Of a DNA stretch of 64,000 bases, positions 51,043 through 55,306 are shown one piece after another. Source of the DNA: Escherichia phage vB_EcoM_AYO145A; the sequence record KR014248; one strand, written 5' to 3'. Numbering within the stretch: position 1 is the first letter of the stretch; each line of letters starts with the position of its first letter. Below the pieces are notes generated by a model. That model saw only the letters and a list, made by a program, of their open reading frames with translations. It was not told the origin of the DNA and did no database searches. The translations under genes were made by a program, and so were the position numbers.

Positions 51043-52215
51043 ATGGCAGTAGGTGAAATTCAAATTAGTGCCTTGCCTCAAGCAGCTTTACCAATTGACC
51101 TTAGTGATATCTTCCATCTTAAGCAGGGTATTGAGGATAAGAGATGCACTCTTGAGCAATTGCTTGCTCCACACTCAAGCCTAAGAAATAACCCTCATGG
51201 TGTTACTAAAACACAAATTGGTTTAGATAATGTTATTAATGCTCTTCAGTTAGTTGCTGCAAATAACTTATCAGATATTGTTAATGTAGCTGAGGCAAGA
51301 GCAAATCTACAGATTATGTCTTCCGAAGAGGTTAATAGTCTTGTTCAACAGCATATTAATGATAAGAGTAATCCGCACAATACAACTAAGGCACAGGTAG
51401 GGTTGAGTAATGTCCAGAACTGGACAACATCTAACCTTTATAATGAAGATGCAGATAAGTATGCTACAGCGAGAGCAGTAAATAACTTGTACAAGGCTGT
51501 TCAGGCTTCCTATCCAGTAGGTACTATCCATCTTTCCATGAACTCTGCAAACCCTTCTACATATTTAATTTGTGGAGGAACTTGGGAGTTAGTTTCAAAA
51601 GGTAGGGCATTAGTTGGTTATGACTCTGACACAAGACCAGCAGGTTCTGTATTTGGTGCTTCAACTGTCACTTTATCAGTTAATAATATGCCTCAACACT
51701 CTCACTCTGTATCTCTTAGTGGTGGTGGTCATACCCATAATGCAACTGTGTCAATTTCAGCTTTTGACTATGGAACTAAGACTACCAACTCTTTTGACTA
51801 TGGAACAAAGGGTACTAATACAACAGGTAACCATACGCACAACGTATCAGGTAACACAAGTACAAATGGTACTCACAACCACGATGTGTACCCTAGAGAA
51901 AATGATGGTACTGGTAATGCTGTAGCTGACTCCGATGGTGGTGGTGCAAGAAGAACATCAAGGACATCGAGTGATGGTGCACACTCACATAGTTTTAATG
52001 TTACATCTGGTGCATCCGGTGACCACAGCCACACAGTCGGTATTGGTGCTCACAGCCACACAGTCGGTATTGGTTCACATACACACAGTGGTACTGTGAC
52101 AGTTTCTTCTTCTGAGCATACACATAGTGGCAATACAAATAGTGTTGGTGGAGGTCAGGCGGTTAATATTGAACAGCCATCCTTCGTACTGTATGTATGG
52201 CAGAGAACAGCTTAA
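51043..52215 (+). CDS. tail fibre protein with His-rich C-terminal repeats
   Basis: 390 aa; C-terminal [17 protein letters not shown]...[16 protein letters not shown] repeats; C-terminus homologous to the next gene. Confidence 0.6.
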
Positions 52216-52261
52216 TTTCTTTACAGGGGCTATCAAGCCCCTTTTAAGAGGAAAATTTACA

Positions 52262-54625
52262 ATGGCAGATTACAAGTTGAGTGAATTAAACTCAATCGAT
52301 ACAATCCGTTCAGATGACCTTCTTCATGTCAGAGTTAAAAAGAGACCTGAAATGCTGGGTGATGAAGACCGTCGAATGACCTATCAAGACTTCTTAGCAT
52401 CTTTTAATCTTGAAAGATTTGTTCAGATTGCTGGTAGCACTATGACGGGTGACTTAGGGATTGTTAAGTTACTTTATGGTGGTAAGGCAGTCTTTGACCC
52501 AACAGGCTCTTCTGAGATTAATATTGGGGATGTTTTAAAGACTTTTAAAATTAACTCAAACGGTCTTAGACTAACTATTGCAGATGCTTCAAGGTCAGCA
52601 ACTGTTTATCATACCCTGAATAAACCAAGTCCTAATGAGCTTGGGATGAGAACTAATGAAGAGAATGATGCAAGATATGCAAGACTTGCTGTTACAAACT
52701 CATTCCAAGCTAAACAGAGTGTCGTAGCAAATGGCGAGCAGTTGACACTGAAGACCCCTGCTGGTGCAAGTGAGGCATACTCCGCTATTGTAGGTCGAAA
52801 TGCCAATAATGATAAAACTTGGGCTGTTGGGAATCTAACTCAAGGAAGTCTTGATGTTCATCTCGAAAACAGCAGAGGTTCAAGAATCACTCTAGGTGCA
52901 ATTGTGTCTGTTAATAAGGCTCTTGCTATTACTGGACAGGTTCAACCTTCTGACTTCTCTAACTTAGATGCTAGATATTTTACTCAGGCAGTTGCTAACC
53001 AGAGATTTGCACAGTTAGCTGCTAATAACACTTTTAGTGGTGCAAACACATTCACTAATTCCGTCAGTGTGAACTCTGATGCTGCTGCTATCATTCTCAA
53101 AAATAAAACTGTTAATGATAATTTGTTCATCCTAGCAAGAGACAGTGAAAACAATAATTTGTGGTATATTGGTAAAGGTGATACAAACTCTAATGTCACA
53201 TTATATGATTATAAGGGTGGTACTTCTATTAAATTAGACTCATCTGGTGTAACATTTAATAAGGTTGTAAAAATCATTGGTCAAGTTCAACCTTCTGATT
53301 GGGCTAACATTGACTCTAGATACATTCCAGCAGCTACTTTGAATAATCTTGCTAAGATTAATGTATCTAATACATTCACGAATACACAAACTATTGTTGC
53401 TAACAATGAAGGGTTGATTGTAAAGAATTTAACACAAAATCAGCCTTTGTATATCCGTGGTGTTGATACCACAAACACCTCTAGATGGTGGATTGGTGTA
53501 GGAGGGAACAATTCTAACGTGGTTACTTGGAGCAACAGCTACTCTGGCACAGCAATTGCCCTTGAACAATCAGTAATTGTGGCTAACAAGAGTCTTGCTA
53601 TCGCTGGTCAAGTTCAACCTTCTGACTTCTCTAACTTAGATGCTAGGTACTATACGCAATCTGTTGCGAACTCTAGGTACATGCTTGCAAGCCTCACTGG
53701 TTCAGCTTCTGAAAAGGATGGTGGGAATGGGGTTGCATGGAATGCTAGAACAGGGCTATACAATGTTACCAACACTACTGGTGGAGCATCTTTTCTTGTA
53801 TCTCATATGTTTTTAGGTGCTGGCTCTACACCATCTGCACAATTAAAATTTGAATACAGAAATGGTGGGATGTGGTATAGAACATCAAGAGATGCCTATG
53901 GCTTCGAAGTTAATTGGTCTAAGGTTTACACGGAAGCACAAAAACCAACCCCTTCAGATATTGGTGCATACACTAAAGCTGAAACTGACCAGAAGATTGC
54001 ACAGGCAGTAAGTGACTCTACAGACCTTAATAAAATCTATCCAGTAGGTATTGTAACGTGGTTTAACAGCAACGTTAACCCTAATACAGCACTTCCTGGT
54101 CTAACTTGGACGTACCTGAATAATGGTGTTGGGAGAACTATTAGAATTGCAGCAGCAAATGGTTCAGATGTTGCTACAACTGGTGGTTCAGATTCTGTAA
54201 CGTTAGCTGTTGGTAACTTACCATCACACACTCACAGCTTCTCTGCTACCACTTCATCTTTTGATTATGGTACGAAGGGGACTAATAGTACTGGTGGTCA
54301 CACTCACTCTGGTAGTGGTTCTACCAGCACAAATGGTGAGCACAGCCACTACATCGAGGCATGGAACGGGACTGGTGCAGGTGGTAGTAAGATGTCATCG
54401 TATGCCGTAGCATATAGGGCGGGTGGGAGTAACACTAATGCAGCAGGAAACCACAGCCACACTTTCTCTTTCTCAACTAACAATACTGGCGCTCACACAC
54501 ACTCTGTAGGTATTGGTGCTCACAGCCACACAGTTAGTGGTAACACTGGTGGTACAGGCTCTGGTTCAGCATTTAGTGTTACTAACCAGTTCTACAAATT
54601 AATGGCTTGGGTAAGAACTGCTTAA
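52262..54625 (+). CDS. long tail fibre protein with internal repeats and His-rich tip
   Basis: RBS + ATG at 52262 (ORF-track start 52127 overlaps upstream gene); three [15 protein letters not shown] repeats; C-terminal GxHSHT repeats. Confidence 0.6.
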
Positions 54626-54703
54626 TCCCTTATTGACTGATTGTTAAGATGGTGTTAATATCTTTATGGGTATTCTCACCATCTTGGCTGATGAGGTGAT
54701 TAA

Positions 54704-55274: not shown

Positions 55275-55306
55275 TAAGGCTCCTTTTTACGGGAGCCTTT
55301 TTTGTT
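55275..55306. terminator. bidirectional rho-independent terminator
   Basis: AAGGCTCCtttttacGGGAGCCTT with T-runs on both sides, between convergent genes. Confidence 0.65.

Follow-up and report, generated by a model that had tools for sequence, protein, structure and literature searches.

What do the two tail fibre genes lying side by side in Escherichia phage vB_EcoM_AYO145A encode at their far ends, and how are these ends related to each other and to the tip of the phage T4 fibre protein gp37? The DNA analysed here, called the window below, is a stretch of 64,000 nt of sequence record KR014248, and the two genes are referred to as P1 and P2 (Table 1). A sequence-only reading had located both of them correctly and had drawn attention to their His-rich C-termini. 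On the whole, our analysis argues very strongly that P1 and P2 are the short and the long tail fibre of a Felixounavirus, with receptor-binding tips of the T4 gp37 type. In addition, the distal part of the P2 tip is nearly identical to that of T4 gp37 itself.

As judged by comparison with sequenced relatives, the window belongs to a Felixounavirus, namely a Felix O1-like coliphage, with P1 as the short and P2 as the long tail fibre. A 20-kb stretch of its structural module has about 97% nucleotide identity to many genomes of the genus, VpaE1 and SUT_S720 among them, while the fibre region is the variable part, with 80-93% nucleotide identity to relatives at incomplete coverage. The gene order around the fibre pair is identical in L27, Bas63 (JohannRWettstein), VpaE1 and REP8, and the pair lies where a Felixounavirus has it, with baseplate wedge and long tail fibre (LTF) platform genes before it (Baseplate_J-like, DUF2612-like and 100-aa platform genes) and, after it, two small open reading frames (ORFs) followed by thymidylate synthase (thyA) and dihydrofolate reductase (DHFR) on the opposite strand. 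P1 has amino acid identities of 98.5% to its counterpart in REP8, 97.4% to VpaE1 gp74 and 76% to the short tail fibre of Bas63, and the closest phage match of P2 in the GenBank collection is in L27 (84.5%). The first 100-150 residues of both fibres, which are the conserved N-terminal baseplate-binding domains, are 92-100% identical to those of the four relatives; the N-terminal halves of P1 and P2 gave no meaningful match in the PDB.

The nature of the tips is seen from the C-termini. P1 has nine HxH sites, with aa 219, 230, 264 and 278 outbound and aa 314, 328, 337, 346 and 359 returning, and P2 has six (outbound aa 656, 680 and 694; returning aa 731, 745 and 754), while 20,000 residue shuffles give averages of 1.4 (maximum 7) and 0.3 (maximum 4), respectively. 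Boxes of the FDYGTK type accompany them, FDYGTKTTN at aa 241 and FDYGTKGTN at aa 251 in P1, and FDYGTKGTN at aa 667 in P2. The HxH runs and FDYGTK boxes noticed earlier are thus present in both proteins, with HxH counts far beyond what composition would give. In the tip of T4 gp37, HxH motifs coordinate seven iron ions, and three chains form a six-stranded needle by running out to the head and back (PMC12609058, citing Bartual et al. 2010). A phmmer search of the PDB matches this tip (2XGF) with both proteins, P1 aa 146-362 aligning to chain residues 18-228 with an E-value of 1.4e-29 and P2 aa 654-766 matching with 1.5e-49, and BLASTP aligns P2 aa 587-783 to T4 gp37 aa 807-1019 with 52% identity (E 2e-56). 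In Pfam, both proteins match the collar fold Gp10_C, and P2 also matches the Phage_fiber His-box repeat. The distances between successive HxH sites are 32-14-37-14-9-9 in T4 gp37, 24-14-37-14-9 in P2 and 11-34-14-36-14-9-9-13 in P1, showing that the 14-37-14-9 register of the T4 iron sites is kept in both proteins, while the number of sites is seven in T4, nine in P1 and six in P2. This homology, together with the preserved spacing, speaks for the earlier suggestion that both ends are probably HxH tips like the metal-binding ones of some long tail fibres.

In an alignment of 65 P1 homologues, conservation is lowest in the putative head at about aa 282-312 (nt 51886-51978), and several of the HxH pairs are at least 90% conserved. 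An AlphaFold2 monomer model gives predicted local distance difference test (pLDDT) values of 77-91 for the collar, 68.5 overall and below 50 for the head; its long paired strands at aa 222-241 and 346-364 are consistent with an out-and-back needle, bearing in mind that a monomer cannot represent an intertwined trimer. Foldseek finds nothing significant for this monomer model in the PDB, the best matches being gp10-type chains. Both results appear compatible with gp37 homology, while not being decisive.

The alternative that survives best concerns the role of this short fibre: only the long fibre would recognise the receptor, and the short one would be the equivalent of T4 gp12, acting as a secondary, irreversible binder of lipopolysaccharide (LPS) or as a baseplate trigger. 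The authors of the Bas63 study do name the protein a short tail fibre and describe it as attached to a wedge domain (PMC12609058), the P1 collar matches the gp10/gp11/gp12-type fold, and two-step adsorption is standard for T4-like phages. However, the P1 tip is gp37-like; no gp12 chain is found among the PDB matches and no Collar domain (PF07484) in either P1 or P2, Gp10_C and gp37 being matched instead. Moreover, the Bas63 short fibre is 430 Å long and runs along the sheath like the long fibre (PMC12609058), and the P1 head is hypervariable across relatives, as is expected of a specificity determinant. We therefore regard a purely gp12-like short fibre as possible though rather unlikely, and in fact a gp12-like role and receptor recognition by the same fibre are not mutually exclusive.

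The relation of P2 to T4 is much closer in one segment. P2 aa 665-737, corresponding to T4 gp37 aa 900-972 and covering the distal needle and the head, differs from T4 at only four of 73 residues (V941A, N944S, I951V and S952A), an amino acid identity of 94.5% and a nucleotide identity of about 91-92%. In codon windows, the nucleotide identity to T4 is 0.83-0.97 inside this segment and 0.23-0.50 on either side of it, and in blastn its core matches T4 gene 37 with 92.5% over 212 nt, second only to L27. Most Felixounaviruses are thus more distant from this core than T4 is (REP 89%, phiWec172 84%); VpaE1, REP8 and L27 share the T4-like head type of P2, while Bas63 does not. From these patterns we lean towards the view that T4 gp37 and the long fibres of some E. 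coli Felixounaviruses (this phage, L27, VpaE1 and REP8) have their distal needle and head in common as a single cassette of about 220 nt, exchanged recently and flanked by His-box/FDYGTK repeats, which moves between two myovirus families that are unrelated. Among T-even phages, adhesins reportedly evolve by exchange at His-box motifs, a known mode described by Tetart, Krisch and colleagues, and the cassette adds a modest instance to the well-known mosaicism of fibres. Its near-identity with T4 may not have been stated in the published VpaE1 and Bas63 accounts, the former describing these fibre proteins as "only distantly related" to gp37.

This similarity bears directly on the relation between the two tips of the window. 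P1 and P2 are homologous in their C-termini over the collar, the needle and the C-terminal strand, with 38% identity and an E-value of 3e-30 after composition adjustment, and short DNA repeats surrounding their His boxes and FDYGTK box occur in both genes; both observations could be taken for a recent duplication in this genome followed by divergence in place. However, because the tips have 38% identity to each other against 94.5% between P2 and T4 gp37 over 73 aa, the sequences indicate that they are not recent duplicates. In addition, each fibre type is conserved as an orthologue of its own in all Felixounaviruses compared, as well as in more distant Ounavirinae, and tips are exchanged horizontally between phages, making a recent duplication here improbable. 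The identities already indicate that the P1-type and P2-type tips of a given phage do not group with each other. Of the duplicated receptor-binding modules proposed in the sequence-only reading, the homology holds and the recent origin by duplication does not. As for a third alternative, that the His-rich runs are of low complexity and form no defined metal-binding structure, it has on its side the Gly/Ser/Thr/His composition bias and the low confidence of the monomer model there, but is effectively refuted by the homology to an iron-bound crystal structure that survives composition correction, by the HxH counts and the T4-like spacing given above, by the HxH pairs conserved at 90% or more in the homologues, and by the lethality of alanine substitutions at the tip histidines H929 and H931 of T4 (Islam et al. 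2019).

On the favoured reading of two gp37-type fibres, each protein would form a homotrimer and dock on the baseplate via its N-terminal domain, by homology with Bas63 and T4, the long fibre probably doing so via the platform protein encoded just upstream, whose Bas63 orthologue is homologous to T4 gp9 and is the baseplate attachment point of the long fibre (PMC12609058). Each tip would consist of a collar followed by a six-stranded beta needle, with every chain running out to a small head and back. Six histidines, contributed by three chains, would hold one metal ion (Fe2+ in T4) at every HxH level, so that homology predicts up to nine metal sites in the short and six in the long fibre. The head, taken as the segment from the third or fourth outbound to the first returning HxH, would sit at the far end and contact the receptor, as it does in T4. 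Since the head sequences of P1 and P2 are unrelated and cannot be aligned, it is plausible that the phage carries two different receptor-binding specificities, as had been suspected in the earlier reading.

For the long fibre, a receptor can be proposed. The T4 tip residues reported as essential for function include H929, H931, I933, W936, N937, G938, G940, G942, G943, S947 and Y949 (Islam et al. 2019), and all those reported are conserved in P2; therefore a T4-like pocket for the terminal glucose of the truncated LPS core is predicted. By analogy, the most likely receptor of the long fibre is the truncated, glucose-terminated LPS core to which T4 and VpaE1 bind on E. coli B, and the predicted pocket agrees with VpaE1 infecting only E. 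coli B, its host specificity being for the truncated LPS core of that strain (PMC4690856). Whether the long fibre also uses OmpC is uncertain; among the residues of the OmpC patch of T4 (K945, I951 and Y953), only I951 is changed in P2.

Several points weigh against this picture of two gp37-type fibres with a T4-like receptor. Fibre assembly and binding in this phage rest wholly on homology; the Bas63 fibre density is too poor for atomic modelling (PMC12609058), and no solved Felixounavirus fibre structure was found in the PDB, only the platform protein of Bas63 being deposited. VpaE1, having a similar T4-like head, does not infect K-12 (PMC4690856), and head similarity is therefore no guarantee of the full receptor range of T4; the replacement of I951 by Val in P2 adds to this. 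A further point concerns folding. T4 gp37 needs gp38 and gp57A to fold, while tblastn with these two proteins gives only chance matches (E 5-7) in the 64-kb window, out of a genome of about 87 kb. A search of the phage collection with gp38 finds T-even, lambda-like and P2-like phages, with no Felixounavirus of about 87 kb among the matches listed. This is in accordance with the Sf14 paper (2025), in which a related ounavirus is reported to have no fibre chaperone homologues.

Besides the tip, the P2 protein has a modular shaft, which the Pfam family gp37_trimer matches in three stretches. The shaft begins with a copy of the beta domain only (aa 140-223); then come two full modules at aa 225-339 and 340-448, which share 43% identity, and lastly a third GQVQPSD linker box at aa 449-477. 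Each box, with the pattern GQVQPSD(F/W)xN(L/I)DxRY, is the first 30 aa or so of a shaft module of 110-115 aa. Of the three internal repeats claimed earlier for P2, all are present as boxes at aa 225, 340 and 449, but only two are exact: the 15-mers at aa 225 and 449 are identical and the copy at aa 340 has diverged, and the boxes are the conserved heads of the larger modules. At the DNA level they form an 88-nt direct repeat in three copies with spacings of 345 and 327 nt, copy 3 being 83% and copy 2 64% identical to copy 1. The repeats are also no peculiarity of this gene, as a hidden Markov model built from the two full P2 modules finds four domains in each of the five Felixounavirus long fibres compared, always at the same positions. 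A weak match of aa 276-343 to T7 gp17 (4A0T) was also observed.

The shaft of P2 is a mosaic of blocks. Residues 101-200 are 100% identical to REP8 (92% over aa 201-250) and 30-74% to L27, Bas63 and VpaE1, while residues 251-350 are 98-100% identical to L27 and 40-54% to REP8, and the other blocks match neither. The mosaic stretch extends over aa 101-587, that is, positions 52562-54022 of the window. This matches the unexpected variability of the long-fibre repeats remarked on for Bas63 (PMC12609058), and it indicates that shaft modules of about 110 aa, each starting with a GQVQPSD linker box, recombine block-wise between related phages. Between shaft and tip lies a domain homologous to the Mu tail fibre S. 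In a published evolution experiment with a Salmonella Felixounavirus, variants were found at aa 497 and 534 of a gp37-like fibre; if the numbering is comparable, they fall in this Mu-S-like domain, which may then also influence the host range.

As to the surroundings of the pair, P2 starts with an ATG preceded by AAGAGGA. A GTG start at 52127, giving an ORF of 832 aa, was rejected, as it overlaps the end of P1, the annotated relatives begin at the ATG, and a conserved hairpin and a ribosome-binding site separate the two genes. Overlapping and antisense ORFs within the fibre genes (e.g. 51614-51925 and 54210-54410, both on the plus strand) were taken as chance ORFs in repeat-rich sequence. The hairpin between the genes has an RNA folding energy of -16.6 kcal/mol (z -2.5), and compared with L27, Bas63, VpaE1 and REP8 its stem is identical while its loop differs. 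A scan for consensus terminators does not call it, so that we reject an intrinsic terminator between P1 and P2 and keep the element as a conserved hairpin only, possibly a conserved RNA element acting as a weak terminator or in RNA stability. The platform ORF upstream of P1 has no Pfam match. The two small ORFs directly after P2 (54704-55270; 64 and 123 aa) encode membrane-like proteins with hydrophobic N-termini, belong to PHROG families of unknown function and show a faint match to Rz-like spanins; neither has a tail-fibre-assembly annotation, and they could have a role in lysis or as fibre chaperones. A promoter-like site at 54633-54661 precedes them, and a strong hairpin terminator at 55276-55299 stands behind them, facing the convergent thyA.

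Table 1. Features of the fibre locus, with positions in the window
Feature	Position	Strand	Basis and remarks
Long-fibre platform protein, 100 aa	50738..51040	+	phmmer E 1e-64, full length, to PDB 9ndy_S "LTF platform protein (gp025)" of Bas63
Short tail fibre gene P1, 390 aa	51043..52215	+	Orthologue of Bas63 gp26 and VpaE1 gp74; phrog_2097 tail fibre, E 6e-138
P1 collar domain, about aa 154-217	51502..51693	+	gp10/gp11/gp37-collar fold
P1 needle-head-needle, aa 218-365	51694..52137	+	phmmer to 2XGF
Conserved stem-loop between fibre genes	52225..52242	+	7-bp GC-rich stem, 4-nt loop, then three further T
Long tail fibre gene P2, 787 aa	52262..54625	+	Orthologue of Bas63 gp27 and VpaE1 gp75; phrog_4277 full length, 1345 bits
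P2 modular shaft	52679..53692	+	Pfam gp37_trimer, 3 stretches, E 9e-62
P2 Mu-S-like domain, aa 479-587	53696..54022	+	Pfam gp37_C E 3.5e-20 (aa 489-587); phmmer to Mu tail fibre S (8JU3) E 4.8e-24 (aa 479-579)
P2 gp37-type tip	54029..54622	+	Collar about aa 590-652, needle aa 653-757, head aa 698-724 (nt 54353-54433), C-terminal strand
T4-like mosaic cassette in P2, distal needle and head, aa 665-737 (T4 gp37 aa 900-972)	54254..54472	+	4 of 73 residues differ

Taken together, the locus is a textbook case of modular tail-fibre evolution, leaving the current understanding unchanged, and it demonstrates that receptor-binding modules are recognisable from raw sequence. The T4 gp37 tip is the best mapped of all receptor-binding surfaces in phage biology, and since the P2 head is almost identical to it, the LPS specificity of P2 should be predictable, and open to engineering, by means of the T4 mutational map. 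If the cassette has indeed been exchanged, P2 should share the LPS-glucose pocket of T4, and a T4-type tip can fold in a genome apparently without gp38 and gp57A. The block-wise recombination of shaft modules and tips is also relevant to the host-range engineering of Felix O1-like phages for therapeutic or diagnostic use.

Finally we compare the pair with the closest known systems. With the Mu fibre S (8JU3), P2 shares the domain at aa 479-579, which matches Mu S aa 330-426 (E 4.8e-24); unlike in Mu, the domain is internal in P2 and followed by a gp37-type tip, and no Mu-type or Tfa-type chaperone gene comes after P2. With T4 gp37 (2XGF), both fibres have in common a homologous collar, needle and head and the HxH spacing, in addition to the near-identical cassette of P2. 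However, T4 gp37 is the distal half of a four-protein fibre, while P1 and P2 are each the product of a single gene and would be attached directly to the baseplate; P2 is without the seventh HxH of T4 and P1 has two more, and the sequence beyond the cassette is only distantly related. VpaE1 (gp74/gp75) is very close in its short fibre (97.4%) and has the same T4-like head in its long fibre, 93% identical in the core, with differences from P2 at T4 positions 941, 944, 952 and 955; in contrast, its long-fibre shaft and Mu-S-like domain fall to 20-48% in several 50-aa windows, for 70% overall. The VpaE1 paper of 2015 (PMC4690856) already found the C-termini of gp74 (aa 146-362) and gp75 (aa 584-780) to be homologous to the T4 gp37 adhesin and proposed them as determinants of host recognition, and two fibres are also described for a related phage in the Sf14 paper (2025). 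Bas63, of the same genus and with the same gene order for gp26 and gp27, has N-terminal baseplate-binding regions 94-100% identical over the first 100-150 residues, and its cryo-electron microscopy study of 2025 (PMC12609058) locates the two fibres on the virion and describes a shaft of repeat domains as well as tips composed of collar, HxH needle and head like T4 gp37; the GQVQPSD boxes of the long-fibre shaft lie at the same positions as in P2. Unlike here, its short fibre has seven HxH sites against nine in P1, the two short fibres are 76% and the two long fibres 69% identical overall, and its long-fibre head is unrelated to that of P2 (38% in the 73-aa core) and not T4-like. The fibre pair and tip architecture described here are therefore correct but already known from these publications, and P1 and P2 represent an ordinary Felix O1-like fibre pair.

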